From an uncultured Nitrososphaeraceae archaeon (GTDB taxonomy: Archaea; Thermoproteota; Nitrososphaeria; Nitrososphaerales; Nitrososphaeraceae): a stretch of DNA of 15,411 nt. Made by a program: the position numbers and the translations under genes. The stretch is taken from the NCBI GenBank assembly GCA_963837175.1, contig CAWIMJ010000011.1, positions 1 through 15,411 on the forward strand, read 5' to 3'. This document shows positions 1-15,411 of this stretch, piece after piece. The notes under the pieces were generated by a model. That model saw nothing but the letters and a program-made list of their open reading frames with translations, was not told where the DNA came from and did no database searches. How positions within the stretch are numbered: position 1 is the stretch's first letter; the number at the start of each line of letters is the position of its first letter.

Positions 1-29
1 CAGACAATTATTACAACTCTAGAAAATTG

Positions 30-66
30 TTTAAATATTAGGCCATCCTAATTAGGCAGACCTAAT
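30..66 (+). promoter_or_regulatory. TATA box (TTTAAATA, 30-37) followed by two overlapping inverted repeats ATTAGG-N4-CCTAAT (37-52, 51-66); DtxR/SirR/MntR-box-like operator
   Basis: Read directly: attagg-ccat-cctaat and attagg-caga-cctaat lie between the TATA box and the ATG at 71. TTAGG-N4-CCTAA is the core of DtxR-family (Sir-box) operators. Confidence 0.7.
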
Positions 67-70
67 CTAT

Positions 71-400
71 ATGATGACAAGAGATGATATTATTGTCTTC
101 AATGAGAGTCATGTGGCAATTCCATTACTGCAAGATATTGTGGATGAAACCACCTTTAAAATAATTTTATCTACTATTGACATAGCAAAAACAGTATTTC
201 AGATATGTGACGAGAATAAAATACCCATAAGCTCTACTTATAAGAAGATTAGAAGACTACAGTATGCTGGCCTAATATCCATAGAAAAAATTGAAATTGA
301 CAATAGGGGCAAAAAGGTGATTTTCTATAAGAGTAAGATAAAATCTCTAGAGTTTAATTTGAAAAAAGATAGTATATTGTTGCAGTTTCACAAAAATTGA
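71..400 (+). CDS. Archaeal winged helix-turn-helix (ArsR-like) transcriptional regulator
   Basis: 109 aa. KTVFQICDENKIPISSTYKKIRRLQYAGLI forms the HTH and KIEIDNRGKKVIFYKSKI the wing, a pattern typical of small thaumarchaeal wHTH regulators. Confidence 0.85.
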   Translation: MMTRDDIIVFNESHVAIPLLQDIVDETTFKIILSTIDIAKTVFQICDENKIPISSTYKKIRRLQYAGLISIEKIEIDNRGKKVIFYKSKIKSLEFNLKKDSILLQFHKN

Positions 401-480
401 TAATAATCGCTAGGACTAATTCATAAGGTTGCAAAATGTAAATAATATCAAAATGTTTGCAGATTTTCAAATCTCTAGCA

Positions 481-586
481 GTATTTTATTGAAAAATACA
501 TTGTGTATGTACATATATTCATTAATTTAAAAACATATTTTGTCGTAGTGTGTTTATCTGATTCTCATAATAGAGAATCTTCTATT
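481..586 (+). promoter_or_regulatory. Putative promoter/operator region of the 612 gene
   Basis: Inverted repeat GTATTTT-N5-AAAATAC (481-499), TATA-like TTTAAAAA (~526-533), and inverted repeat GATTCTC-N6-GAGAATC (560-579) overlapping AATAGA-N6-TCTATT (569-586). Confidence 0.4.
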
Positions 587-611
587 GTAATAAATACTTC
601 GACACCAGTCA

Positions 612-1850
612 GTGCCTAATATGATGACAAAAGTAACTAAAGGAATAAGGAATAAGATCATAAAGCTAGATGCATTCTATACGATAGTTGGAGTTGTTGT
701 TGCTTTTACAGTGGCAACTGTATTACTTATATTGTATATTACATTGCCATCGTTTGATTATAAGGCATTTGCGCAGGAAGAGAATAATGAAACTGTTGCC
801 GATATTATTGATTCTAATACCACTAATCCGTCTAACCTAACAAGTTCTAACACTACATTGGTAGATTTTGTATCCAATATAGAACAGATTAGAGGTCATC
901 TCGAGCAAGCAATATCCAATAAACAAGCTGGAAATAATATATTAGTTCTAGCACACACACTACATCCAATAGAAGAAATATATTCTAGTATAGAAGGTCA
1001 ACTATCTAATGCAAATAGCACTTTAAACCAAACTCTTTCATCAAATTTGAATCAACTTTCACAAATGGCCAGCAATTCTACAGTGGGTCGATTTAATACA
1101 CAAGCCCAGATAGTAAATGGCTTGTTAAACCAAACAAGTGAAAAAGTTATTCCAACTGAGACCAGAAATAATAATAATACTGCATTTAATCTAATGGTTA
1201 TAGCAGATTTATTATCAATAGCTGGAAGTGAATATAAAGAGGCTGTAGATAATGGGACAATAAAAGAAATAGTTGAGTATCAAGATGCTCAAGGATTTGT
1301 TTCAAGAGCACGATCTGTATTTGAACAAAGCTCATCATTATTATCATCATCATTGAAACCTCAAGAATTATCAGACAAGATTCAAAAGATAAAGGAATCC
1401 TTCTATGATTTAAACAATGCTATACAGAATAAATCAAATCCAGAAGTTGTCAATACGTCAATTAGAGCAATAATAGATGAAATATCAGGAATAATAGGAA
1501 TAAGTAAAGAAGTTCTTGGCGCTGGCAGCCAAGCTGGTGTAGAACAGATAAAAGTAATCGCGGAGATAAGAAATATACTTAATCAAACAATTCAAGAATA
1601 TAGACAACAGAACTACAATGAAGCTAAGACTCTAGCAATAAGTGCATATCTTGATAACTTTGAATATATAGAGAATCTTCTAGCAGAAAAAGATAAATCC
1701 TTAATGCAAAATATTGAAGTAATGTTAAGGGAACAGCTTAGACAGATGATACAAAATAAAGTATCATCAGAAGAGCTGCAACAACATATCGATAAAATAA
1801 ATAGCAATTTAGATCAAGCTGAGAAGTTACTTTCCTCGTCATCTACATAA
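612..1850 (+). CDS. Exported/membrane-anchored helical metal (probably iron)-binding protein with a C-terminal domain like the soluble domain of FTR1/PbrT permeases
   Basis: N-terminal hydrophobic helix ending in AFA-Q (signal peptidase-like site) and many N-x-S/T sequons. Motifs EQIRGH, HTLHPIEE, EYQDAQGF and AYLDNFEYIE. The start may be the ATG at 621 or 624. Confidence 0.65.
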   Translation: MPNMMTKVTKGIRNKIIKLDAFYTIVGVVVAFTVATVLLILYITLPSFDYKAFAQEENNETVADIIDSNTTNPSNLTSSNTTLVDFVSNIEQIRGHLEQAISNKQAGNNILVLAHTLHPIEEIYSSIEGQLSNANSTLNQTLSSNLNQLSQMASNSTVGRFNTQAQIVNGLLNQTSEKVIPTETRNNNNTAFNLMVIADLLSIAGSEYKEAVDNGTIKEIVEYQDAQGFVSRARSVFEQSSSLLSSSLKPQELSDKIQKIKESFYDLNNAIQNKSNPEVVNTSIRAIIDEISGIIGISKEVLGAGSQAGVEQIKVIAEIRNILNQTIQEYRQQNYNEAKTLAISAYLDNFEYIENLLAEKDKSLMQNIEVMLREQLRQMIQNKVSSEELQQHIDKINSNLDQAEKLLSSSST

Positions 1851-1991
1851 TCTCTCTCACCATCATTTACCCAATGAATAGTGGATATCAATTATACTTT
1901 AACTATTGTTGTGTTTGTTAACTCCTATTATTCTTCTTTCTTTCTAGTTATTATTAATAATAATTATAATTGCTCTTGTACTAATAAAAAA

Positions 1992-2237
1992 TTATCTATT
2001 TGATTTGACTGGCCAACTAACGCACATCTTCCTAGTGTATCTGATAAATAGCAATGTTTCACTCTGTCTGTATCTTTTCTGTCTCTGCTATTTCAGTGGA
2101 ATTATGCATGTCTACCTTCTTCTTGGCTATTCTGTTATGCAGCATGTCCTCGAGTATTTTTAGTAATTGTGTTTGCTGTGAGATGCTGCTGATGGTGATG
2201 ATGATGCCGTTAAATTATTCTTTTTCCTACCACTCAT
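1992..2237 (-). pseudogene. Probable frameshifted small helical protein gene
   Basis: The minus strand reads MSGRKKNNLTASSSPSAAS, then in another frame SQQTQLLKILEDMLHNRIAKKKVDMHNSTEIAETEKIQTE, then ETLLFIRY in a further shift. It needs two indels and looks more protein-like than the plus-strand ORF 2054-2257. Confidence 0.35.
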
Positions 2238-2305
2238 TAATAGACTTTAGATATTAAGTTGTAGTAATATACATATTCTTAATATGAGTATATTAACTGA
2301 TAACT

Positions 2306-2440
2306 ATGAGTGAAGAAATTGACAGAGAAGAAATTAAAGATGAAACCCATCAAGTACAAGATGAACAACAAGAAGAGTTGGATGATCTAAGAGGAAGAGG
2401 AAGAGGAAGAAGAATAAGACAAAGCATTGAAGAAGCTTGA
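2306..2440 (+). CDS. Small acidic low-complexity protein (44 aa), below the ORF-track cutoff
   Basis: MSEEIDREEIKDETHQVQDEQQEELDDLRGRGRGRRIRQSIEEA*. Strongly purine-biased, and divergent from the 2237 ATG across an AT-rich spacer. Confidence 0.4.
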   Translation: MSEEIDREEIKDETHQVQDEQQEELDDLRGRGRGRRIRQSIEEA

Positions 2441-2958
2441 GAAATTGAAGGAGACAAACTGCAGCAATATTAGTACAATAATCTACTATTATTACAGAAC
2501 AAGATGCACGGAAACAAAAGGTGAAACGAACTCTAACTCTTCAATAGCTGAATGCCAGATATATTTATTTATGCTCTAGGATATTCCACCAGAAGGACTA
2601 GTTAATACTTCTATTGCTGAGAGTGCTATTCACCGTAACGAAGTAACTTGTCACTGAAAGGTTTTATTATTTTTTATATATCTATAGTGATAATAGATTA
2701 CATTAGTAATATAGTTACAAGGTTTCTAGGTGCGAAATCACTTTCTATGGCATTCAAAAAAGAAAAAGAGAACCAATAACGGCATCCTATTACTAAAATA
2801 GAGCAATGAATTAGATCAGATAAGAAATAGATTACTAGTAGGAATAACTATCTCTGACGAATCAAATATTTAAGATAGTTTATAACCATAAATTATGAAA
2901 GAATAAGGAAGCACATACCTGGATAAAGTAAGTTAATAAGTTTATTTACATACATCTT

Positions 2959-3684
2959 TTGTATATATATATGTTGTCGGGAATTAGTATTATCATAATT
3001 ATGGTCTTATTCTTATTTGGCACAAATATTATGGTGATTATTATCAATACAGAATGGAGAATTGCTTTTGCAGCAAGTGACTTCTTAATTCAAAAAACAT
3101 CATCATTTGTAGATGAAAATAAAATTATGCATGTCTATGGTGAAGTAAAAAATATATCAAATAAAGCCATGACAAATGTAGTAGCAAAGGCCTTATTTTA
3201 TGATGCTAATGGAAAGTTACTTAATGAATTTCAAAGGTCTTCTGAATTACGCACAATTAATCCTGGGGGCATATCTCCATTTGAAATACTAAACATCAAT
3301 ACAAAAACTGTTAAAAATGTAAAGGACTTTAAATTATCTGTGATAGGCACTCCTATTGAGAAGAGTAAGCCAACAGCACTAAAAATTCATTCTGATAATT
3401 CTAGACTTAATCTTTTAGGTTTTTATTATATCAACGGCAGAATTGTAAATGGAGGCCCATTGACAGCTACAGACTCTACTGCAATAGCTACATTTTATGA
3501 TAGAGATGATAATATAATTGCAATTGGAAGAGCATTGGCTGAGCCAGTAAATATTACTTCAGATAGTCATGCTGCATTTGGACTCGTGGTAACAGAGAAA
3601 TTACAAACATACAAGATAAAAAGTTACTCTTTGATAGCAGATTCTGATCAGTACGTATCTTTACCGGTATTTTTATCAAAGTAG
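2959..3684 (+). CDS. Exported protein with two tandem FxLYD-type (Ig-like) domains
   Basis: Signal region ending in AFA-A, then two repeats: HVYGEVKN...ALFYDANGKLL...ISPFEI and YYINGRIVN...ATFYDRDDNII...AAFGL. The true start is probably the ATG at 2971 or 3031. Confidence 0.8.
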   Translation: MYIYMLSGISIIIIMVLFLFGTNIMVIIINTEWRIAFAASDFLIQKTSSFVDENKIMHVYGEVKNISNKAMTNVVAKALFYDANGKLLNEFQRSSELRTINPGGISPFEILNINTKTVKNVKDFKLSVIGTPIEKSKPTALKIHSDNSRLNLLGFYYINGRIVNGGPLTATDSTAIATFYDRDDNIIAIGRALAEPVNITSDSHAAFGLVVTEKLQTYKIKSYSLIADSDQYVSLPVFLSK

Positions 3685-3822
3685 AGTTACTAGCCTTTGT
3701 TATATTATATCTATTAAGTATTTCTAGAAGTTTACAACAATAAGAAACATCGTGCAGCTTAGAACATAAAAAGAGCTGTACAAGCGAGCTGTTATTATAT
3801 ATTTGAGAATAGGCATATCTTT

Positions 3823-4394
3823 GACAAGGTTGGAGTATACCTTGTAGCCTTTGATGAAGTCGTGCCCATTTTTATTCAAGCACAAAACCACGATCTTCTT
3901 TCCAAAGTAAAATGGTATGGAAGTGATGGTTCTGCGCTAAATAACAAGATTGTAAGAAATGCTGAAGCCGCAACCTTCGCACTAAACACAAGTTTCTCGA
4001 CTCCAATATATGGAGTCGAAAATCATAATGTAAAAGGTTTAAAGATGTCGAAGCTCAGATTCATGAGCAAATCGAGAGAACTCGTAGATCTTATGCAAGT
4101 GTTGCTTATGATATACTATGGATAGCAGCTCTAGCTGAGAATAATACCAAAGCTACACATGATACCAATTACTTAAAAACTAAACTTGTGAAAATAACCG
4201 ATTCATATAATGGAATCACAGACAATACAAGCCTAAATCAAAATGGTGATAGAAAGTATGGAGATTATGATTTTTGGGCTGTGAGTAATAGTGAGAGTAA
4301 TCATGATACTTTTACTTGGAAGCGTATTGGTAAATACATATCAGGTACAAGAACTGAACAAGGGCTTATCGATCAGATAATGCCAGTAAGGTGA
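3823..4394 (+). pseudogene. 5'-truncated, frameshifted ABC substrate-binding protein (type I periplasmic binding fold, branched-chain amino acid/LppC-like)
   Basis: DKVGVYLVAFDEVVPIFIQA...KWYGSDGSA...PIYGVENHN, then a 1-nt indel near 4030, then KRFKDVEAQIHEQIERTRRSYASVAYDILWIAALA...YNGITDNTSLNQNGDRKYGDYDFW. This joins ORFs 3862-4125 and 4188-4394; the N-terminal half is absent. Confidence 0.8.
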
Positions 4395-4510
4395 AATGAG
4401 AATGATTCTCACCAAATTCAATAGTCATAGGAGAATTAGAAAAGAATTACAATCAGTTGCTGTTGTAGTCATTTTTGCTGCTTTTCCCTTTGTATCTATT
4501 GTATAGATGA

Positions 4511-5069
4511 TCAACGGTAGTTGTTCTTGTTTCTTCTTTTTTTCTGTGATGATATCTCTAATAGCTTCCTTGTTTGTTCTATACCATATGCAGGTAGGAT
4601 CTTTGAATCAAGAAGGCCTATCTGAACCAAGAGAGATGCTTGATCCCAATAAATGTGTTCATGTGCTATCTTATCACCATCAAACTTCATGACCACAACA
4701 TGCGCTAGCTCTACATACTTACCTGTTGGTGGTATCCCAGGAAGCATAATTTTAATTTCTCTATCATGTGTAAAACTTAGAATGAGCTCATCAACAACCT
4801 GATCCTTTCCAACAGTACCAGAGACATGTACAATCTTTGTATCAGCAGGCATTTTTACCGACAAAATCATTCTTATAGAAATTGTAGACTCCATCATAGC
4901 CTATTCCTCCAGTTAATGTTGGTACATGGTGTACATATGGCTCTTTAACCATTGTCTTCATCGTTGTGTCTACATCATGATCTTGGAATTCGCACTTTAC
5001 ATGTTTGTCAAATACTGCTCCTAAGTTAGGATGTCGTCTATTTTTTTTCTTTCGATTATTATTGCTCAT
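4511..5069 (-). pseudogene. SnoaL-like/NTF2-fold ester cyclase family protein split by one frameshift
   Basis: FDKHVKCEF..DVDTTMKTM..PYVHHVPTLTGGIG..FY...FVGK joins MPADTK..VVDELILSFTHD..MLPGIPPTGK..KIAHEHIYWDQAS. Removing one base from the T5 run at 4852-4856 fuses the two ORFs. It may be a sequencing error. Confidence 0.85.
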
Positions 5070-5282
5070 ATGATTTACTGTCTCTCCCTATCAGTAGTTA
5101 TACAAAGGTTCTTAATCTCCTTTCTTTTTCAATATCGCAGAAAAATGACAGCCAAACTACACCATTTCTTTATACCAACTTGTGCTCACATAATTATATT
5201 GATTCCAACCTACCTTCATAAGTTTTAGCAACTTCTATACAATGTTATTTATACTAAAAGATAAAAACCCCCTAAGCCAATT

Positions 5283-5741
5283 TTGATAGTGAGAATAGCT
5301 GTGAGCAACTCGAATCACTATCATAAAAGGCATGCTCCTGTAAAGCGAATAAGTATGTCATTATCACCTGAATTATTATCTAAATTTGATAAGAGTATGA
5401 TTAAAGCAGGATATTCAGACAGATCCAAAGCGATTCAAACAGCAATTCATTCTTTTATAGATAATTATGATTGGAAAGTGGGTGAAAATGAGGATGGTGC
5501 TGGCGCAATAATAATGCTATACGACAACCATATTTATAACCAAGACACAAAATCAACTCAAATTCAGCATAAATACAAATATGTAATTAGTGCTTCCACA
5601 CATTTGCATTTGGAAGGTGATAATTGCCTGGAAACTATTATGGTAAAAGGACAAATTAAAAAAATCAAAGAACTTGCAAAATATCTATCAGAAAATCGAG
5701 GAATCAAGAGTCTAAAGGTTCATTTCGTATCTCTTGATTAA
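5283..5741 (+). CDS. nikR: Nickel-responsive regulator NikR (ribbon-helix-helix plus ACT-like metal-binding domain)
   Basis: RHH motif KRISMSLSPELLSKFD...GYSDRSKAIQTAI. Ni ligands QH...HLH....NCLE correspond to E. coli H76/H87/H89/C95. The start may be the GTG at 5301. Confidence 0.9.
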   Translation: MIVRIAVSNSNHYHKRHAPVKRISMSLSPELLSKFDKSMIKAGYSDRSKAIQTAIHSFIDNYDWKVGENEDGAGAIIMLYDNHIYNQDTKSTQIQHKYKYVISASTHLHLEGDNCLETIMVKGQIKKIKELAKYLSENRGIKSLKVHFVSLD

Positions 5742-5940
5742 TAATATTAATTTAATTAGGTTCATTACATATAGTATTTAAAAATCTATTGCACTGCTTC
5801 TTGTTCAGGATACATTTTTAAAAAATCAAAGTTATAAAATCCTTTTTTAATCAAATTAGTCGTTGTCAATTAGAATATGAATTCCGTAATATTAAGCGGT
5901 ATGATTAGTCTGGTATTTTGAATATATTTAAGCTATCAAG

Positions 5941-5970
5941 AGTAATACTAATTATAAAACTATTAATACT
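5941..5970 (+). promoter_or_regulatory. Putative NikR operator AGTAATA-N16-TAATACT downstream of a TATA-like box (~5925-5932)
   Basis: A 6/7 inverted repeat with a 16-nt spacer, the geometry of the E. coli NikR site GTATGA-N16-TCATAC. It ends 20 nt before the SBP start. Confidence 0.65.
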
Positions 5971-5990
5971 GGATTTCATATTTTGTCTCA

Positions 5991-7085
5991 TTGACGAAAA
6001 ACTTAATTATTATACAAATTACCAGTTTGGCTGCTGCAATTGCTTCAGTTATTGGTGTAAGTTTGAATCTAGAAGTCTATACAGCTGCAGGTTCTACTAC
6101 TCCTGTTTCAATATCAATTAATACGACTACTAATTCTTCTTTCTCTTCTGTTGGTAGTGGTATTGATAATACTACAAGGACACAACTTAATGTCGTAACA
6201 TCTGTTTCACCTATCACAAATATAGTCAAAAATATAGGTGGTGAAAGAATAGAACTAACAGGACTTATTCCAGAAGGTATTAATTCACATACTTATGAAT
6301 TAGTCCCTTCAGATAGAATCAAAATAGAAAATGCAAATCTTGTAATTATCGATGGACTTAACCTTGAAGGAAATATCGAAAGAGCCGTAAACCAAGCACA
6401 GATCAAAAATCATCAGTTACAATTGCTAAAACTTGGAGATACTACTATAACAAAGAATCAATGGATTTTTGATCTTAGTTTTCCAAAAGAAAGGGGCGAT
6501 CCTAATCCACACCTATGGTTGAACATAGCATATGCTATGAAATTTGCAAACCTTACAAGGGATAAATTAATAGAGATGGATCCTCAGAACGTCGACTATT
6601 ATTCTTCTAATACAGAAAGATATCTCCTAATTTTGAAGAAATTAGACAAAGCAATAATACAGTCAGTACATACTGTTCCTCCCCAAAATAGAAAATTGCT
6701 TACGTACCACGATTCATGGGCGTATTTTGCACCACGTTACGGCATGACTGTAATCGGTGCAGTTCAACCTTCTGATTTTGGAGAACCTACACCAAGGGAA
6801 GTCGGTAGGCTAATAGAGCAAATACGTGCTGAGAGAGTACCAGCCATATTTGCATCTGAAGTTTTTCAAAGTAAAGTAGTTGATCAAATAGCGAGAGAAG
6901 CAAATGTAAAGATTGTTGAAACGTTAAGTGACGATGATCTTCCTGGGGAAAGTGGTGATCCTGCACATACATATGTTGGAATGATGTTAGAAAATATGCG
7001 CAATATGCTTGTGCCGCTTGGTGGCAATGTAACTGCTTTGAATCATATCGATCCTATGGATACATACATACACTTATCAAGGTGA
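5991..7085 (+). CDS. Metal ABC transporter substrate-binding protein (cluster A-I, TroA/ZnuA/MntC family)
   Basis: N-terminal TM anchor and Ser/Thr linker. Motifs VVTSVSPITNIVKNIGG, NSHTYE, DGLNLE, DPNPHLW, YHDSWAYF and SDDDLPG. Confidence 0.95.
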   Translation: MTKNLIIIQITSLAAAIASVIGVSLNLEVYTAAGSTTPVSISINTTTNSSFSSVGSGIDNTTRTQLNVVTSVSPITNIVKNIGGERIELTGLIPEGINSHTYELVPSDRIKIENANLVIIDGLNLEGNIERAVNQAQIKNHQLQLLKLGDTTITKNQWIFDLSFPKERGDPNPHLWLNIAYAMKFANLTRDKLIEMDPQNVDYYSSNTERYLLILKKLDKAIIQSVHTVPPQNRKLLTYHDSWAYFAPRYGMTVIGAVQPSDFGEPTPREVGRLIEQIRAERVPAIFASEVFQSKVVDQIAREANVKIVETLSDDDLPGESGDPAHTYVGMMLENMRNMLVPLGGNVTALNHIDPMDTYIHLSR

Positions 7086-7091
7086 GCATAA

Positions 7092-7928
7092 ATGAACACA
7101 AATACTAATATTTGCTTAAACTTGCAAAATATAACATATGGATACTCTTATCATTTACCTGTTCTTGATGGAGTAAACCTGACAGTTCCAAAAGGCATAA
7201 TGCTTGGATTGCTCGGACCCAGTGGATCGGGTAAATCCACGCTTCTTAAAATAATTGTAGGTTTATACAAGCCATGGCATGGTTCTATTGAGTTTAATAA
7301 TAATAATATTATGTGCCCTGCTTCATCAAAAGGACAACAACAGAATTCTTGGTTTCGGTCAACTTTCAGAGTGCATAAAGACATACCTTCCATTGGATAT
7401 GTGCCTCAAGTAGAGAGTGTTGACTGGACTTTTCCCGTAACAGTCAAAGAAGTAGTTGCTATGGGGATTTGGGATCAATCAGGAGCAACACCTTGGCTTG
7501 CAAAAAATTCAACTGATGAGATAGAGTATATACTTGATAGTCTTGGGCTGGATGGTAGTTTATACATGAAAAGACAAATAAGGGAACTATCGGGAGGAGA
7601 GCAACAACGAGTATTTCTAGCCAGAGCATTGATTCGCAATCCAAGTATTCTTTTATTAGATGAGCCCACATCTGGAGTAGACTATAATACACGAGAAAGA
7701 ATTCTAGGAATATTGACAGAACTAAATACTAAGGGAATCACAATTATAATAGCAACTCACGACATTACTGGCCTAGCAAGACGACTTCCATGGGTTGTAT
7801 GTTTAAATAAAAACATAATATCTCAAGGTTCCCCAGCAGATACACTTACGGAAACTAATCTCTTGAAAACATATGGATTAATCGACAATACCTCGGTAAC
7901 ATCTACAAAGCCAACTGAAGAAGGGTGA
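7092..7928 (+). CDS. Metal ABC transporter ATP-binding protein (ZnuC/MntA-type)
   Basis: Walker A GPSGSGKS, Q-loop IGYVPQ, signature LSGGEQQR, Walker B LLLDEP and H-loop ATHD. An SD-like GGTGA lies upstream at 7081. Confidence 0.97.
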   Translation: MNTNTNICLNLQNITYGYSYHLPVLDGVNLTVPKGIMLGLLGPSGSGKSTLLKIIVGLYKPWHGSIEFNNNNIMCPASSKGQQQNSWFRSTFRVHKDIPSIGYVPQVESVDWTFPVTVKEVVAMGIWDQSGATPWLAKNSTDEIEYILDSLGLDGSLYMKRQIRELSGGEQQRVFLARALIRNPSILLLDEPTSGVDYNTRERILGILTELNTKGITIIIATHDITGLARRLPWVVCLNKNIISQGSPADTLTETNLLKTYGLIDNTSVTSTKPTEEG

Positions 7929-7940
7929 TAAAACAAAAAT

Positions 7941-8843
7941 TTGTTAGAATATATCATACAACCATTTCAATACGAATTTTTCACACGAGGAATAATAGTA
8001 GCAATAATGGTAGGAGGTGTATGTGGACTTGTTGGCGTATATATAGTATTACGTGGAATGAGTTATATCGGACACGGAATGTCGCATGCTGTTTTTGGAG
8101 GAGCAGTAGCAAGCTACATTCTTAGTTTTAATGTGTATATTGGTGCAACGCTTTGGGGATTTATCTCTGCTATTATTATCAATGAGATAAATAGAAGAAA
8201 CAAAATTAAAGCAGATGCCGCTATAGGAGTTGTCACTACTGCAGGTTTTGCAATTGGTGTTTTGTTAATTAGCACGACACGAAGTTTTACTAGGGATTTT
8301 GAATCTCTTCTTTTTGGTAATATACTTGGAATAACGGATCAAGATCTGCTCGTGATTTCTCTGGTATCTATTCTAACAATTCTCTTTGTTTTCTTCTGTC
8401 ACAAGAAACTCATTTTCATACTATTTGACAAGGAAACATCCAAAGTTTATGGAGTGAAAGGTGATCTTATCGAATTGATCTTTTCATTAGTTCTTGCAGC
8501 AGTAGTGATTGCTTCTATGAATGCTATTGGAGTTACTCTACTTGCGGCTGCTATAGTAGCGCCTGCAATATCAGCTAGGATGCTTACAAACAACTTCCTA
8601 AAAATGGTTACAATTTCTACAATAATAGGTATTGCTACTTCCTTCTTAGGAATGTATGCTAGTTTCTATTTTGATTCTGCGTCTGGTGCTACGATAGTAT
8701 TATTTGGAGCAGCAGCATTTGGGATATCATCACTTTATGCATTTCTGAGAAGAATATATCATACACACTCGCATGGAGATCAGAAGCATGCGCATCCTCA
8801 TATTCATGTACAAGAACATCAACACCCACATCAAAATGATTAA
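7941..8843 (+). CDS. Metal ABC transporter permease (ZnuB/MntB, ABC-3 family) with a His-rich C-terminal tail
   Basis: Multi-TM protein with GVYIVLRGMSYIGHGMSHAVFGG, DAAIG, LFGNIL and ASGATIV. Tail HTHSHGDQKHAHPHIHVQEHQHPH. SD-like GGTGA near 7924 and a TTG start. Confidence 0.95.
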   Translation: MLEYIIQPFQYEFFTRGIIVAIMVGGVCGLVGVYIVLRGMSYIGHGMSHAVFGGAVASYILSFNVYIGATLWGFISAIIINEINRRNKIKADAAIGVVTTAGFAIGVLLISTTRSFTRDFESLLFGNILGITDQDLLVISLVSILTILFVFFCHKKLIFILFDKETSKVYGVKGDLIELIFSLVLAAVVIASMNAIGVTLLAAAIVAPAISARMLTNNFLKMVTISTIIGIATSFLGMYASFYFDSASGATIVLFGAAAFGISSLYAFLRRIYHTHSHGDQKHAHPHIHVQEHQHPHQND

Positions 8844-9231
8844 AAGAAAACCGCTAACATTGAAATGCTATGTCTGTTTTTATGGTCTTTTAGAAAGCGA
8901 AAATGAATAATAATAAAAAGATGAATATTATATCTCTACAATTTTCTGCATAGTTATACACTCGTCATAGGTGTTATACTTCTTGTTCATACTTTATGCA
9001 CTGATGCAACTTTTACTATTCTTCGATAATTAGTGACATTCAAGGATTTACAAAGGCATGTTCAATATTCAATAACAATAACATTCTAAACACATCAAAC
9101 TGGTTTGGATTTAAGAGGTAAGTTGTTCTGGTTATGGAACAATGATAGTCATAGATTAGAGGATTCCAGAACTGCTGGTAATTTAAAATCTATAGGTATT
9201 ACTACTTACTCTATATAAAGAAACGTACTTT

Positions 9232-9981
9232 TTATCTATAGACATTTGAACCAGAATTTGCCTGTTCTAATCTAGCTTCTCTCAGATTTTTTTCTATTAT
9301 TTCTGCTTCTTTGATCAAAGAATTGATATCACAGGACGCATCTGGAAGTAGTTTCATCACTGCTTCTGAAATTGCTGCTGCAGCTCGAAAATCTGATACG
9401 TCTTTTATCACTTTTGTTAGCAAAACAATAACGTCAAAATTCATCCATGATCCTTCATTTAATAATAAGGCAGGAATTCCTGTTATCGAGCCACTGGAAA
9501 GCTGAACAATTTCAACTTTTTCGAGTCTTTCTTGAGCCTTTTTTGTACTTGCTACAGCATATATTTCTTGTATTTTAGATTTCCCGGCAGATGAATTGGA
9601 TATTTCGGTTGGCATGCCGGCAGCGCTAATGACAAGTCCACACTCATTCTTTTTTGCCCATTGTAAAATTGTTTTTGATACACAATAATACATTGATTGG
9701 TCAAGGTTTAATTCTGATATAAGAAAGGCAAGCTTGAGATTCTCATTTGCATAAATTCTTGCCGGAAAATTTGGAGTACCATTATAAATTACCGACAATG
9801 CTGGAAATCCCAATGAATCTAATACAGCGACAAGTTCATTTTTTAGTGAATGAATAAAGCATCCAGAGGCAATCGCATTGATTAGCCCTACGCTAGGAAA
9901 GCCATCAATGACAGTCCCTCCTTTAAGGTTAACCTCTTTTATTGTTCGAATTTCAATATTTGGAGAAGTAGAGTATGACAA
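9232..9981 (-). CDS. Proteasome assembly chaperone family protein (PAC2/PbaA-B-like)
   Basis: Motifs IDGFPSVGLINAIA, FPARIY, SE, GSITGIPALLL, DFRAAA and LIKEAEIIEK. Confidence 0.9.
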   Translation of the reverse strand: MSYSTSPNIEIRTIKEVNLKGGTVIDGFPSVGLINAIASGCFIHSLKNELVAVLDSLGFPALSVIYNGTPNFPARIYANENLKLAFLISELNLDQSMYYCVSKTILQWAKKNECGLVISAAGMPTEISNSSAGKSKIQEIYAVASTKKAQERLEKVEIVQLSSGSITGIPALLLNEGSWMNFDVIVLLTKVIKDVSDFRAAAAISEAVMKLLPDASCDINSLIKEAEIIEKNLREARLEQANSGSNVYR

Positions 9982-10352
9982 TATCAGTACAATTGCGTCC
10001 TTCCTATAAAAAATATTTTGTAGTCAGTAAACCAGAATTATATTTTATATAATTAACTTAGGAATTGATGAGATTAAAATCGTGGACAGTTTCATCGTCA
10101 TATTTTATGTACTCACTCCTTTTAGTATACTAGCAATAATTACTCTATACTCAGCGGTATAAGAACCCATATAGTTAGCATGTTCGGTGGAATGCATGAC
10201 AAATTTGACCATTTGCAACGCGAAAAGAGTAGATTATATCATGCATATGTTGGTAGTGATCTAACAACATTCCTACAGCCTTAAATAAAATTAAGAGATT
10301 GTAGGAAGAGGTAAGAGGAATAATTATTTAGATAAATAATAATACCTCTGTC

Positions 10353-10669
10353 TTATCTTATCGTTTCTTCTTTTATCAAAGTTTTACGTGCTGTAGATAT
10401 CAAATATACTGACATGCCAATCATTATTACTTGAAGTGCTTTACTAACCATGTCTAGCTTGCCTATGTAATACTCTACTCCCACTATTGGAACACCAATA
10501 GTTCTAGATGCTCATACGTTGCAATTAATATAACAGATACTGCTGCTACAACAATGTATGGAATCTTACTTCTAATCTTTGTCTTAAGGATCCAAACAAA
10601 TAATCCAAGATATACAATTCCAGCACCTATAAAAAGAGTCATTTCAACTTGTTTTTCTTGTGTTTCTGC
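10353..10669 (-). pseudogene. Frameshifted, probably 5'-truncated thaumarchaeal-type membrane protein missing from the ORF track
   Basis: Manual translation gives AETQEKQVEMTLFIGAGIVYLGLFVWILKTKIRSKIPYIVVAAVSVILIATY, a 1-nt loss near 10512, then ASRTIGVPIVGVEYYIGKLDMVSKALQVIMIGMSVYLISTARKTLIKEETIR*. It has three clear TM helices and an in-frame ATG at 10642. Confidence 0.75.
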
Positions 10670-10741
10670 AGGACAGAATTGACTCTATTTTTCCACCCAC
10701 CTTAATAGACATCTTTTTTCAATAAAATATAATATATTACT

Positions 10742-10963
10742 TTGAACAAGGAGCGAATAGTAACTATATTAATACTAATGGGGCTATTTGGTGGACTTGT
10801 TGGTGGGCCTATTGCTAGCTTGCTAGATTATCATGCTCTTCCAGTAAAACGCTTCTGGTTATTCATCATCATTCCAGAATTTATTGGATTTATATGCGCC
10901 AGTATAATGATATATTATGGAAGATCAAGGAGGAAAAGCAATGATGATAGAAAATTGTGCTGA
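10742..10963 (+). CDS. Small hypothetical membrane protein (2 TM)
   Basis: 73 aa with two hydrophobic helices and a basic C-terminus (RSRRK); TTG start. Confidence 0.55.
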   Translation: MNKERIVTILILMGLFGGLVGGPIASLLDYHALPVKRFWLFIIIPEFIGFICASIMIYYGRSRRKSNDDRKLC

Positions 10964-11276
10964 CATCCTCAGAGGCTCCTTAATCCTGTCGATTATCAAC
11001 AGCCTGTTATGACTCTATTATTCTTAGAGATTAAATGATATTCATTTCTCTTAATATTTGCATATTCATTCATGACATGTCTTCTTTTATCTTATCTGAT
11101 TCATTAGTATAAGTAGGGAGAAGAATTATTGGAATAACTGTACAATAATGCAACAAGCTATTTTTTTGTTTTCTTCTGTAAGACTCTTACTTTCACATTC
11201 TTAGAAAAACCTAAAGGAAATACATTGCATATGAACTCATTTAAATAATAAGAGTTCTTTTTAGTAATACAAACAT

Positions 11277-11555
11277 ATGGTTGCTACTGCATTATTAGTA
11301 TTTTATCGATTTAAAGCCATGACTAAAGAAGAAACACAAAAAGCTAACGATGAATGGAATGAATTGAAGAACAGCTTACCTTCTGGCATTGAGCTTATAG
11401 GAGAATATGTCCATGCATGGGGTACTGAATATAATGGTTTTTTGTTATTTGAAGCTGATAGCGCCGATTCATTTTTGGACTGGTGGTCAAAGTTTAAGGA
11501 TACTATTAGATGGTATGTAGAGCAAACACATACAATAGTAGCAAGGAGAAGGTAG
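11277..11555 (+). CDS. Small ferredoxin-like/dimeric alpha-beta barrel protein (GYD/DUF3303-like)
   Basis: 92 aa with a beta-alpha-beta-beta-alpha-beta pattern, GIELIGEYVHAWGTEYNGFLLFEADS. A TATA-like TTTAAATA lies near 11240. Confidence 0.7.
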   Translation: MVATALLVFYRFKAMTKEETQKANDEWNELKNSLPSGIELIGEYVHAWGTEYNGFLLFEADSADSFLDWWSKFKDTIRWYVEQTHTIVARRR

Positions 11556-11920
11556 CTAAATTTTTATCTAATGCATATTAAATTATTTTCTTCTACTTCT
11601 TTATCTCTTAAATCTCTGCATTCTAGTTTTATTTTTTTCAAATAACGACCTAGTTCATGTGTTCGGTGGGATTAGGTCCCTGCATGTAGAGGAGGGGTTC
11701 AATTATTTTGCTTATTTATTTTGCTTTTTCTCATACTGTGGCTTGCTATAGACTCAGGTGGAGGGTGGGGACAGATTTTAACTTGGTTTTATGTCTTGGC
11801 CATTCTTAATCATCTTAACATGTGCAAGATGTAATTAAGAATTAATCTACCTAAACATGGCACGCAAAATACTTCAAATAGAAGATGGCTTTCTGCTTCA
11901 AGAATAAATAGATATATTGC

Positions 11921-12463
11921 ATGGTGATAACCCATATAGAGGACATGGCTCAAACCCTTTGTATCAAATGTGGTTCAGAGCTCAAAGTATCTTCCTATTG
12001 TCACCTTTGCCAAGAGCCTTTAATTTTTGCATGTACTTCATGTGAGTATATTACTGAAGAAAAAGTTCATACCGATTGTAGAAATGCGGAAGTATTAGCA
12101 AAAACAGCAACAGCAGCACAAGAAGATGCGGCGGCTGCTGCTACTACAACAACCACACCTACAACTGGGAATCAAGAAAAGAGTATTGTTGATAAACCAA
12201 AAGAAGAAGAAACGGTTAAAGCAGAGCCACGTTCTGCACCATCTTATATGACAAGGGAGCAAGATAATAAAAATTCCAACAATGTTAATCCGTTTGTTGC
12301 AGGCACAGCAGTTTGGCAAAGCTTGATGACCTATTGGTTTAATGCTTATGGAGAATTTCTTAAAAATGCACCAAAAATGACTGAAGATTGGTATAATACA
12401 TATTGGAAGCCTTGGTTAAATTGGTCACGCAGCAGCAGACAAGGACAAGACAAAGTGAAATAA
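11921..12463 (+). CDS. Double zinc-ribbon protein with a low-complexity linker and a Trp-rich C-terminal domain
   Basis: C-x2-C-x9-C-x2-C-x7-C-x2-C-x8-H-x2-C, an Ala/Thr linker and a C-terminal segment with 6 Trp. The start may be the ATG at 11945. Confidence 0.75.
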   Translation: MVITHIEDMAQTLCIKCGSELKVSSYCHLCQEPLIFACTSCEYITEEKVHTDCRNAEVLAKTATAAQEDAAAAATTTTTPTTGNQEKSIVDKPKEEETVKAEPRSAPSYMTREQDNKNSNNVNPFVAGTAVWQSLMTYWFNAYGEFLKNAPKMTEDWYNTYWKPWLNWSRSSRQGQDKVK

Positions 12464-12939
12464 GCTCTGATTAACTAAGTAGCGGATTTGAGAGAAAAAA
12501 TATAAAAATCCCAAAAGTCATAACTTCATAATATAGGAGCAAGAAATCTATGAAATTAATTGAAGGAGATAGCATAAAGATAAAAATTTAGTTATTGTTT
12601 TTTAGCTTAGTAAATATTATTATTATATTAAATATATATCCATAAGTCATTCGACTAGGTTTTCTTAGTGAGCTAAGGAATATTAGGATATGATAAATAC
12701 TATAATATTATAATACAAAAGATGTAAATTCTACGGGTTCAGTGAGAGGCAATATACTATAGTTCACCAATTAATTTGCTATATACTCTTTCTCTGACAG
12801 TCCTTGAGATGACTCAATAGTCGGATGTCGTTGGAAAAACCAAAATAACTAACTGCCATAGGTGATTGCAAGATGAAAAACAGCAATCATATACTAAAAT
12901 AAATTATGTTATCCATTATCTATTATTGTCTACTAGCCA

Positions 12940-13748
12940 ATGATGATGCAAATAAAGCGTTTTCCAGTAGCCACAACATCCATAATCACATTAAATGCTG
13001 TAATTTTTGTCATAGGAATACTATCAGGTTCCCAAATACAAATTATTCAAAATTATGGTTTTATTCCTAATGATCTTTTTTATGTAGGAAGTAATGCAAA
13101 TGATAACGGGAATAATAATAATAATCCTGCTGAAAGTGCTCACCAAAATCCATTGTCTTCTTCACTACCGCTGCAATCATCAGAGCCATCACGATCATCA
13201 TCATCATCACTACCTGAATCCTTGATAAGATTATTCACATCTATGTTTATACATGCTAACATTGCACATATTGCGTTCAATTTATTTGCATTGGCTTATC
13301 TTGGTGGATATGCAGAAAGAGCAATTGGAGTCCCCCGATATGTATTAGTATATCTTATATCAGGAATTGTAGGCAGCTTTATTTCATGGGATTATAGCAT
13401 CTTACATCTTACACAATGGAGATGTAGTATTGATAGGTGCTTCAGGAGCTATCTCTGGTGTATTAGGCATAGGCAGTTCAACTGGCAATTACAAGGGCCT
13501 ATTATTGGCTCATGATACAAATTGTATTTGCGGTGATTGGCTCTGTAAGTGCACTTCCAATAGCATTTTCTGCTCATGTTGGTGGATTTATTGCAGGTGT
13601 ATTAATGACCAAGGTATTAGTTAAGTTAGAGCAGACAAAAAGAAGAAAATCAAGATATTTTCTGAGCCGTGAAAGAAAAGAGAATTGCTTACCAGTAATT
13701 ATCAGGCGTAGAAATCAAAGAAAGAAAAATTCCCTTCACATTTTTTGA
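12940..13748 (+). pseudogene. Rhomboid-family intramembrane serine protease split over three frames
   Basis: LFTSMFIHANIAHIAFNLFAL...AERAIG (first frame), IGASGAISG with the catalytic Ser (second frame), AYYWL...AHVGGFIAG with the catalytic His (third frame). Single extra bases near 13372 and 13490-13497; may be sequencing error. Confidence 0.88.
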
Positions 13749-13967
13749 ATCAACATTATGAAATAATATTCACTTTATTTTAATAGTGGGAGTGTGGTTG
13801 ACTCCATCAATATAGATTGGTTCCTTTTCTAAGGAAAATTCTCACTATCTTTAAGAATTAGAAGTAATCTAAATCCTTTTAGTTCATTCCAAAGGCTGTG
13901 TTAATATAATGTAGTATAATTTTAGTATAAGTTTATCTAATATATTTTCTAAGATAAAAATACACAT

Positions 13968-15401
13968 ATGTTGGAATCTCAGGCAATTGTAAGAATAAAT
14001 GGAGTACTGCCAGATATTTCGATATTAGGTGATGCAGAAAAGTCGGAAAGAGCAGCTGAGGTAAAAAGAACAGGCATGACTGCAAATACCTCTTGTTCAA
14101 TATTCGTTAAGGATAAGACGACAACTTCATCATCATCGACAACAATAAATAACAATACAATTTTCCATTTGCTAGTAGATATCGGTGAAGGAGTAGTCAA
14201 AAGCCTTGAAAAAATAGATCTAGCTCCTTATCGTGATTTTAATGATTTTACTACCGAATCTGCTGCAATTCACGTACCAGATGCTATATTTATAACTCAT
14301 TCACATGATGACCATATTAAGGAATTACCTCTACTCATCAGTAAGGCTAACCAACAATCAAGAGCTTTGAAAATATTTTGTACTAAGGAGTGTCATGATC
14401 AAATTGTAAGTAAATTCCCTGAGATTTCTAAAATAAATGATAAAGTATCATTTAATGTAATTCAACCAAATCAACCTTTTGAAGTAGGCTCTATCTCAAC
14501 AATACCTATTTTGGCATATCACGGTGATAATTCTCCACCAGGTTCTGTCATATACGTACTTAAGTTACCAGATAAAAGAAAAATAATAATTGGATGGGAT
14601 TTTCTCTCATTGCCAGATGATGATGTAGACCAGAATTTATTCTGGAATCCTGACCTTATTATATTAGGTACTCAAAGTTATAATCCTCATCCTGAAACAG
14701 GATTAATATCTGTTAGTGATGCCTTTGAACTTGTAAGAAGATGGAATGCAAAGGAATGTTATATAGTACATTATAGAGGATTGATGGATTTTGAAGATGC
14801 AAAAAATCAATGGTTCAGAGGACCTACTAAGGCTATGAATAGTGAAGAGCTTCAGAAAACCATAGATGAAAATCTTAGAGTAACAGGAAGGGAAGGGAAA
14901 TTCAAGATTACTGTAGCTAAGGAAGGAATGGTGTGGACTGCAAAAAGTCAAGAAGAACAAAAAGTAGAAGGACAGCAACAAGAACAACCAAGACAATTAT
15001 CTTCTATTGGTAATGTTATTGAAATCGAATCTCTTCAAAACTATATTCTAAGATTTGAAAAGGAGGATAGAGATGATATGCTCAAACTTATGATAGAAGA
15101 CAGAATTAACAGATTCGACCTCAAATTCATAAGTGCACATATAGACAGAAGTAACGACAATATTTTATATGCTCAAGGAGAAAAGGAAATGTTTTCAAAG
15201 GGTCCTGAATTGAAGATGGAAATAGTTCCATCATCATCAGAATCTCTAGACAAAGTAGAAGAAGCCTCTGTAGTAAGAATAAATGTGTTCAAGGGAAAGA
15301 AGAGCATCTTCAAAGATGACATACTGTTAAGCAGAAAAGACACTGAAGAACTCAGAAGGTATATTAGAGAAAACTTTGTTGCTGTTCAGACAACTACATA
15401 A
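13968..15401 (+). CDS. Metallo-beta-lactamase-fold hydrolase (PhnP/RNase Z-like) with an extra C-terminal domain
   Basis: ANTSCSIF, LLVDIGEG, THSHDDH (HxHxDH), AYHG, GWDF and IVHY, then a Q/E-rich linker and a ~130-aa beta-rich domain. Confidence 0.85.
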   Translation: MLESQAIVRINGVLPDISILGDAEKSERAAEVKRTGMTANTSCSIFVKDKTTTSSSSTTINNNTIFHLLVDIGEGVVKSLEKIDLAPYRDFNDFTTESAAIHVPDAIFITHSHDDHIKELPLLISKANQQSRALKIFCTKECHDQIVSKFPEISKINDKVSFNVIQPNQPFEVGSISTIPILAYHGDNSPPGSVIYVLKLPDKRKIIIGWDFLSLPDDDVDQNLFWNPDLIILGTQSYNPHPETGLISVSDAFELVRRWNAKECYIVHYRGLMDFEDAKNQWFRGPTKAMNSEELQKTIDENLRVTGREGKFKITVAKEGMVWTAKSQEEQKVEGQQQEQPRQLSSIGNVIEIESLQNYILRFEKEDRDDMLKLMIEDRINRFDLKFISAHIDRSNDNILYAQGEKEMFSKGPELKMEIVPSSSESLDKVEEASVVRINVFKGKKSIFKDDILLSRKDTEELRRYIRENFVAVQTTT

Positions 15402-15411
15402 AAACAATAAC

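Follow-up and report, generated by a model that had tools for sequence, protein, structure and literature searches.

The stretch examined here is a contig of 15,411 bp (the window, which is the entire contig C11; CAWIMJ010000011.1) from the genome of an uncultured Nitrososphaeraceae archaeon (GCA_963837175.1; 3.81 Mb in 58 contigs, 91.5% complete). Four co-oriented genes occupy positions 5283-8843, encoding a NikR-family regulator (NikR1) and the binding protein, ATPase and permease of an ATP-binding cassette (ABC) transporter of the cluster A-I class. The best explanation of this locus is a NikR-repressed cluster A-I nickel importer that databases name as a zinc or manganese transporter, to which we assign a probability of about 70% from comparison of sequences. 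Nickel uptake in an ammonia-oxidising archaeon had been proposed in a sequence-only reading of the same DNA; archaeal amoA is found in the genome, and the nickel-uptake interpretation is supported by the comparative evidence laid out below, the suggested checks that are open to computation having turned out favourably.

The regulator is assigned to its family by a Pfam NikR_C match (1.2e-22), by the NCBIfam model NF002169 (residues 20-149, 118.6 bits vs a cut-off of 111) and by alignments with the solved NikR proteins of Pyrococcus (2bj1, 1e-23), Helicobacter (2ca9, 8.5e-17) and E. coli (1q5v, 2.5e-9), the first of which begins at residue 5 of the 2bj1 chain and thus covers the N-terminal ribbon-helix-helix as well as NikR_C. 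The segments QHKY and THLHLEGDNC of NikR1 align on QHEY and LHVHMDEHNC of the Pyrococcus protein, and Helicobacter NikR aligns too. Because of this agreement with solved NikRs, the His3-Cys set can be called complete with canonical H-x-H-x5-C spacing, which confirms the full metal site that had been read from the sequence. The aligned three His and Cys are what we take to be the nickel site in the solved structures, and NikR1 is predicted to bind DNA in a nickel-dependent manner.

The gene for NikR1 lies 249 nucleotides (nt) upstream of the binding-protein gene, and spacers of 6 and 12 nt separate the transporter genes from one another. The arrangement of a nikR gene upstream of, and co-oriented with, a cluster A-I operon was therefore described correctly from the sequence, since the Pfam matches agree with it: the binding-protein, permease and ATPase families that mark cluster A-I metal importers are found together within one operon. 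This three-part architecture (PF01297, PF00005 and PF00950) is shared with TroABCD, AztABCD, ZnuABC and MntABC/PsaABC. The binding protein carries an N-terminal hydrophobic anchor and a Ser/Thr-rich linker, with no Cys in its N-terminal part, and resembles MntA (5hx7, 2e-35), PsaA (1psz, 6e-34), AztC (~1e-29) and TroA (4e-23) in the PDB. Against NCBIfam it scores 185 for AztC (cut-off 350), 150 for MntC (400) and 96 for ZnuA (268), while the best matches of the ATPase and the permease are AztA (170.6 bits vs 220) and AztB (200.3 vs 280). None of the curated zinc/manganese equivalog cut-offs (AztABC, ZnuABC, MntABC) is reached by the transporter proteins of the window, and no match of the window's proteins to the NikABCDE, Nik/CbiMNQO, NiCoT or HupE/UreJ families was found in Pfam or NCBIfam.

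Alignment with PsaA places the four ligand columns of the binding protein at H100, H174, H240 and D315, and this H/H/H/D set is unchanged in 27/27 orthologues. The manganese-type pattern, represented by PsaA, is His2-Glu-Asp; it is absent here, the third column being His240 and not Glu. His3-Asp is the ligand pattern of TroA and AztC, which carry zinc (and manganese or iron). The His-rich tail that had been noticed on the permease is likewise a lasting feature, as all 25 orthologues compared keep it with 9-12 His each, apart from one row with 7 in which the extension of the open reading frame (ORF) ran past the stop.

A palindrome of NikR geometry had been pointed out at the operon promoter, and the box at 5942-5969 is confirmed and conserved in two families, though as a palindrome it is imperfect (5/7 half-site positions symmetric). 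The end of the box is 21 nt upstream of the TTG at which the binding-protein gene starts. The pattern GTAWTAC-N14-KTAWTAC matches once in the window, vs 0 in 200 dinucleotide-preserving shuffles. Its spacer holds a TATA-like element, TTATAAAA; similar A/T boxes occupy the spacer in related loci, and some loci have no obvious TATA box there. Directly 5' of the orthologous binding-protein genes the consensus reads GTATTAC-N14-GTAATAC. The architecture agrees with the NikR boxes given in PMC545781, namely GTATGAT-N13/14-ATCATAC and GTGTTAC-N13/14-GTAACAC with half-sites sometimes reversed.

Conservation of the neighbourhood was followed across 101 genomes of the same family, with NikR1 orthologues defined by at least 52% identity; such orthologues are present in 51/101. 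Forty nikR1-orthologue loci were examined, and the 26 lacking ABC genes gave 181 nearby ORFs, the nearest 50 of which were run against Pfam. Binding protein, ATPase and permease genes stand alongside nikR1 in 14/40 loci, and two further nikR-ABC loci of the same family were picked by their binding-protein match. A second family has the ABC genes with a convergent nikR in 4/4 loci. The synteny that the sequence-only reading offered for checking is thus conserved within and beyond the family. Another 14/40 loci have an adjoining PF03824 NicO gene; 13 of the 14 encode proteins of ~270 residues with a weak HoxN/NixA match (four checked), and the remaining one has the gene order ureA-ureB-ureC-nikR-NiCoT, its NiCoT being full-length (359 bits vs a cut-off of 333). 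Neither ABC nor NicO genes are seen in 12/40 loci; these include two from congeners in which nikR has decayed to a remnant, and several that run out at a contig end. In the NikR1 tree, with the two remnants excluded, loci with ABC neighbours are intermingled with those next to NicO, and the well-supported branches require a minimum of four changes between the two.

Three loci call for separate description. The two remnants (L026, L027) carry 2-5 stop codons in nikR and have no ABC genes within 6 kb, and their genomes have a NicO-like gene below cut-off beside ureC; the loss of the regulator seems to have gone along with that of the transporter. A third locus (L034) is from a genome without a reported NicO match; inspected by eye, the DNA that separates its nikR from the gene of the binding protein looks like that of a membrane protein in which one loop is long and His-rich.

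The box was then sought as GTAWTAC-N13-15-GTAWTAC at 13/14 or better over 438,439 nt, comprising the window and the 40 nikR1 loci. In total, 25 sites were found vs an average of 2.08 and at most 5 in 50 shuffles: nine before an ABC binding-protein gene, ten at 32-63 nt before NicO/NiCoT genes and six elsewhere, with four NicO loci having no site at this threshold. As a control, the best N14 site 5' of the binding-protein gene was scored for each locus. It reaches 12/14 or more in 16/17 nikR-linked loci and 11/14 in the remaining one, vs at most 10/14 in 7/7 loci from genomes without NikR1. In one genus with nikR and the ABC genes unlinked, sites of 12-13/14 lie further upstream, and in the second family one or two boxes precede the binding-protein gene in 4/4 loci, at 14/14 in three. 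The box co-varies with NikR1.

The transporter and NicO exclude one another in the family. Presence sets were tallied by hand, a binding-protein orthologue being a match at E <=1e-128 (plus one broken copy) and NicO a match over cut-off. The binding protein occurs in 41 of the 101 genomes, NicO in 38, neither in 22 and both in none, vs ~15 genomes expected to have both under independence; the split holds within three genera as well. All 51 genomes with NikR1 have one or the other (29 ABC, 22 NicO). When three genomes flagged as unpublished (G035, G077 and G098) are set aside, the counts are 39, 38, 0 with both and 21 with neither of 98, with NikR1 in 50 (28 + 22), and no claim made here depends solely on those three. 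Several genomes with neither transporter have NicO-like genes below cut-off adjoining ureC. In the wider class, orthologues were found in 7/14 and 4/5 sampled genomes of two families, and in 0/114 genomes of the largest, neighbouring family.

The transporter is also tied to urease: in three genera its genes belong to the urease cluster or adjoin it. In one genus, 7/7 genomes that have the binding protein without NikR1 place it ~7 kb from ureC by coordinates, and 4/4 loci of that genus show a co-oriented series of urea transporter (UT), ureABC, chaperonin, ureEFGD, binding protein, ATPase and permease, with a gap of roughly 50-110 nt between ureD and the binding-protein gene. Another genus has the ABC genes and the urease cluster in divergent orientation; nikR, where present, lies between the two.

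The genome that holds the window has a complete urease cluster (urea transporter, ureABC, a chaperonin-like gene and ureEFGD), and urease is the only nickel enzyme that was both looked for and found there. A Cpn60/TCP-1 chaperonin-like gene stands between ureC and ureE in the urease clusters of this genome (L010, contig C50) and of L064-L067, L072 and L073. No match to CbiM, NicO/NiCoT or HupE/UreJ was found in this 91.5% complete genome, which has one SBP_bac_5 gene on contig C5. Parts of a second metal system are spread over other contigs: a paralogous binding protein on C8 (27% identical, three His, no Asp in the fourth column), a paralogous ATPase on C46 beside a second NikR paralogue (NikR2, 26% identical to NikR1) and a paralogous permease on C37. 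The NikR2 type lies, by coordinates, within 2.1 kb of the ZnuA-like second binding-protein type in at least 35/101 related genomes. Since the genome has this separate ZnuA-like cluster A-I system, zinc has a plausible other route. NikR2, encoded in the region C46:20121-22083, likewise keeps the His3-Cys residues, but its Cys is preceded by 2 additional ones; by analogy with what was once suggested for Methanothermobacter, it may be a zinc-sensing NikR-family regulator.

From these observations we infer nickel as the metal and repression as the direction of control. NikR1, a ribbon-helix-helix repressor, would bind the GTAWTAC-N14-KTAWTAC box in its nickel-loaded form, and since the transporter's TATA box falls between the half-sites, this binding is proposed to block the initiation of transcription. 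When nickel is scarce the operon would be transcribed; the membrane-anchored binding protein would then take metal at its His3-Asp site and pass it to a permease dimer, which the ATPase would drive. The permease's His-rich tail, probably cytoplasmic, may buffer the metal or hand nickel on, and the imported nickel would serve urease. The module may also carry cobalt.

A number of observations weigh against a nickel importer under NikR1. The His3-Asp site is not diagnostic, nickel and zinc not being told apart by it, and one half-site of the window's box has its centre base flipped. Nineteen urease-bearing genomes have neither transporter over cut-off. No ureC match was found in 8/41 binding-protein genomes, six of them from one genus, and in that urease-less genus no [NiFe]-hydrogenase was found in the three genomes tested and no LarA in five. 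The counts given above were made over related genomes, which are non-independent samples. As the ABC system also occurs in genomes without urease, the supply of nickel to urease, one of the uses that the sequence-only reading had put forward together with a check of co-occurrence, is too narrow: cluster linkage in three genera and the full urease of the window's genome speak for it, and the urease-less carriers do not fit it. The recruitment of a zinc/manganese-type transporter, which that reading also suggested, would further imply a direction of evolution. In the second family, 2/4 genomes have neither ureC nor NicO but do have a [NiFe]-hydrogenase large-subunit gene.

The locus could alternatively encode a zinc (or zinc/manganese) importer, with NikR1 as a zinc-sensing member of the NikR family. 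The ligand set of TroA/AztC type would suit this, as would two further points that count against nickel, the top family matches (AztC, AztA and AztB) and the public names of the 120 orthologues listed, which are ZnuA, Mn/Fe or 'metal' and never nickel. His-rich tails are known in zinc proteins too. A further point for zinc and against nickel comes from Kaster and colleagues, who suggested zinc for the methanogen NikR homologue MTH603 beside ZnuABC in Methanothermobacter (PMC3087415). That pair resembles the present one as a NikR-family gene adjoining a ZnuABC-type cluster in an archaeon, and, likened by description only, it may correspond to NikR2 and the ZnuA-like binding protein rather than to the pair in the window. 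The zinc explanation is nevertheless unlikely, because all the AztABC, ZnuA and MntC equivalog scores fall below cut-off, the genome has its separate ZnuA-like system of the type that NikR2 adjoins elsewhere, and a zinc importer would have no reason to exclude NicO, to share the NicO operator or to sit in urease clusters. Moreover, every cell needs zinc, yet the system is patchy, both within the family and in its absence from the neighbouring one. A transporter chiefly of cobalt for cobalamin synthesis, with NikR1 and the NicO relatives forming a cobalt regulon, would agree with the lack of CbiMNQO and NiCoT in the window's genome, with the persistence of the system in urease-less genomes where no nickel enzyme was found, and with the existence of NiCoT-family permeases specific for cobalt (PMC2667541). 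The placement of ABC genes in or beside urease clusters, the one NikR1 gene between ureC and a full-length NiCoT, and a His3-Cys set that is the nickel site of solved NikRs make this very improbable. Cobalamin synthesis is, to our knowledge, also general in these archaea, a poor match for a patchy system.

Finally, NikR1 might have no control over the transporter at all, adjacency and upstream element reflecting a shared promoter ancestry and not a NikR operator. Because the TATA box lies within the element, the conservation of the element is in part that of a promoter, and NikR1 binding there is predicted from sequence. A genome-wide scan, which also tells against the nickel importer, gave 12 sites at 13/14 or better vs 4-14 in shuffles and hence no enrichment. 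Besides the two promoter copies, which stem from a doubling of the locus described below, most of these sites fall within ORFs or repeats; one borders a 227-residue ORF on contig C20 with no NCBIfam match, and none was found at the urease promoter. Against independence of NikR1 and transporter, NicO genes, which are unrelated, have this 7-N14-7 element in front of them as well, a TATA box is not obvious in the spacer of some loci, the element matches the published NikR box architecture (PMC545781), and it disappears precisely in those cases in which NikR1 is gone and the transporter retained. Of the explanations considered, this one is given the lowest probability.

The proposed nickel importer shares with the E. 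coli NikR-NikABCDE and the NikR-NikMNQO/NiCoT regulons a His3-Cys repressor gene beside its target and, at the promoter of a (here predicted) nickel importer, an operator whose two 7-nt half-sites are separated by 13-14 nt. It differs from them in that the target is of cluster A-I, and not of the peptide/nickel family (NikA), the ECF type (NikM) or NiCoT, and from published NikR boxes in its GTAWTAC half-site. Compared with known cluster A-I systems, with which it shares the three-part architecture and, in TroA and AztC, the ligand set, its binding protein has no long His-rich loop, its permease has the conserved His-rich tail, and its context is NikR and urease instead of Zur, MntR or TroR; unlike in Azt systems, no AztD-like partner gene is among the ORFs of the window. 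The binding proteins of the NiuBDE/CeuE-type importers are of a siderophore/B12-like class and bind a nickel-histidine complex, unlike the window's binding protein, a predicted direct binder of the metal ion. The systems are alike in that the Helicobacter NiuBDE/CeuE-type transporters are ABC importers of nickel that do not belong to the NikA family and that provide urease with the metal (PMC5140060), a service proposed for the present non-NikA importer as well.

Cluster A-I proteins have been described as carriers of iron, manganese and zinc (PMC8811889), and a 2009 survey of archaeal nickel and cobalt transporters names, in its available part, only Nik/CbiMNQO, NikABCDE and NiCoT (PMC2667541). 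A figure legend of a marine study counts nikR among the genes unique to urea-type ammonia oxidisers (PMC12774514), and a text search of a copper-limitation study of Nitrososphaera viennensis gave no mention of nickel or NikR (PMC7785015). A full-text literature search, supplements excluded, returned no description of a cluster A-I nickel importer or of this locus in ammonia-oxidising archaea. We lean towards a broader claim, in which this would be the first nickel-dedicated cluster A-I (TroA/ZnuA-type) importer, found in a widespread clade of soil ammonia-oxidising archaea where it is annotated ZnuA throughout, repeatedly exchanged with NiCoT-like permeases under one NikR operator and part of the urease operon in some lineages, so that nickel sensed by NikR1 would gate urea-based nitrification in soils, with the parallel NikR2/ZnuA-like pair as a possible archaeal zinc sensor.

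Nickel importers are thought to be limited to a few families, to which a cluster A-I member, if true, would add one. The His3-Asp site of 'zinc' binding proteins would then be tunable to nickel, making selectivity in a well-studied fold directly testable, and thousands of Nitrososphaeria entries named ZnuA or Mn/Fe transporter would need new names. The system also offers a possible nickel route for many urease-bearing soil ammonia oxidisers without any known nickel transporter, and a defined operator and regulator for the study of metal-dependent gene control in these archaea. Table 1 collects the features of the locus.

Table 1. Features of the nikR-transporter locus, in window coordinates.
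Feature	Position	Strand	Basis or remark
Putative nikR promoter	5247..5266	+	TATA-like ATTTATAC (5247-5254) and AAAGATAAAA (5257-5266)
nikR (NikR1), ribbon-helix-helix and C-terminal nickel-binding domain	longest ORF 5283-5741 (TTG); likely 5301..5741 (GTG)	+	Pfam, NCBIfam, PDB
NikR box GTAATAC-N14-TTAATAC	5942..5969	+	sole match in window; conserved in relatives
TATA-like TTATAAAA in operator spacer	5952..5959	+	read from sequence; putative function
ZnuA/TroA-type binding protein	5991..7085	+	PF01297 6.3e-66; PDB matches MntA, PsaA, AztC, TroA
ABC ATPase subunit	7092..7928	+	PF00005 1.5e-30
ABC-3 family permease	7941..8843	+	PF00950 1.1e-65
His-rich C-terminal permease tail	8748..8840	+	translation; 10 His in last 40 residues

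The GTG start of nikR is more likely than the TTG, since two congeneric loci have ATG at that position. A motif of the AAAGATAAAA type is repeated, by eye, ~35-45 nt 5' of nikR1 starts in many related loci, and together with ATTTATAC it may serve as the promoter of the gene, at which the operator scan placed no box of 13/14 or better. Other candidate elements were discarded. A palindrome covering the start of nikR (5276-5331), though better-looking than that of the box, is not kept in two congeneric loci and is therefore probably due to chance; AT-rich inverted repeats at 5761-5838 are not conserved; and a scan for sigma-70 promoters and terminators, not applicable to archaea, returned fewer sites than in shuffles.

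In four soil metatranscriptome libraries, which may include DNA, short contigs match nikR and the binding-protein, ATPase and permease genes; none spans a gene junction by 31 letters, and operon structure and regulation are not shown by them. Fourteen public DNA runs from seven studies, labelled as soil metagenome or without label, hold 87-94% of the words sampled from window positions 5200-9000, and the sample of origin may be among them.

The GC content of the contig is ~0.30-0.38. Positions 1-10666 are 99.56% identical to C10:87869-77201 of the same genome, and the complete nikR-transporter locus therefore occurs twice in the assembly. The two copies encode identical NikR and permease proteins, with binding proteins one residue and ATPases two residues apart; the doubling could be a recent duplication or two strains within one assembly (contamination 3.2%). 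Upstream of nikR, the overlapping minus-strand ORFs 4842-5069 and 4511-4897 look like a single SnoaL-like gene broken by a frameshift, the profile match being to the C-terminal half only, on the second ORF. Downstream, the transporter genes are followed by a PAC2 proteasome-chaperone gene (9232-9981) in convergent orientation. The remainder, 10667-15411, looks like a repeat-rich or mobile region: its segments recur on more than 15 other contigs at 77-97% identity, and among its genes are one for DUF3303 (11277-11555), a rhomboid gene that is partial (12940-13515) and one of the MBL fold (13968-15401), the last with 93% identity to copies on C33 and C36.

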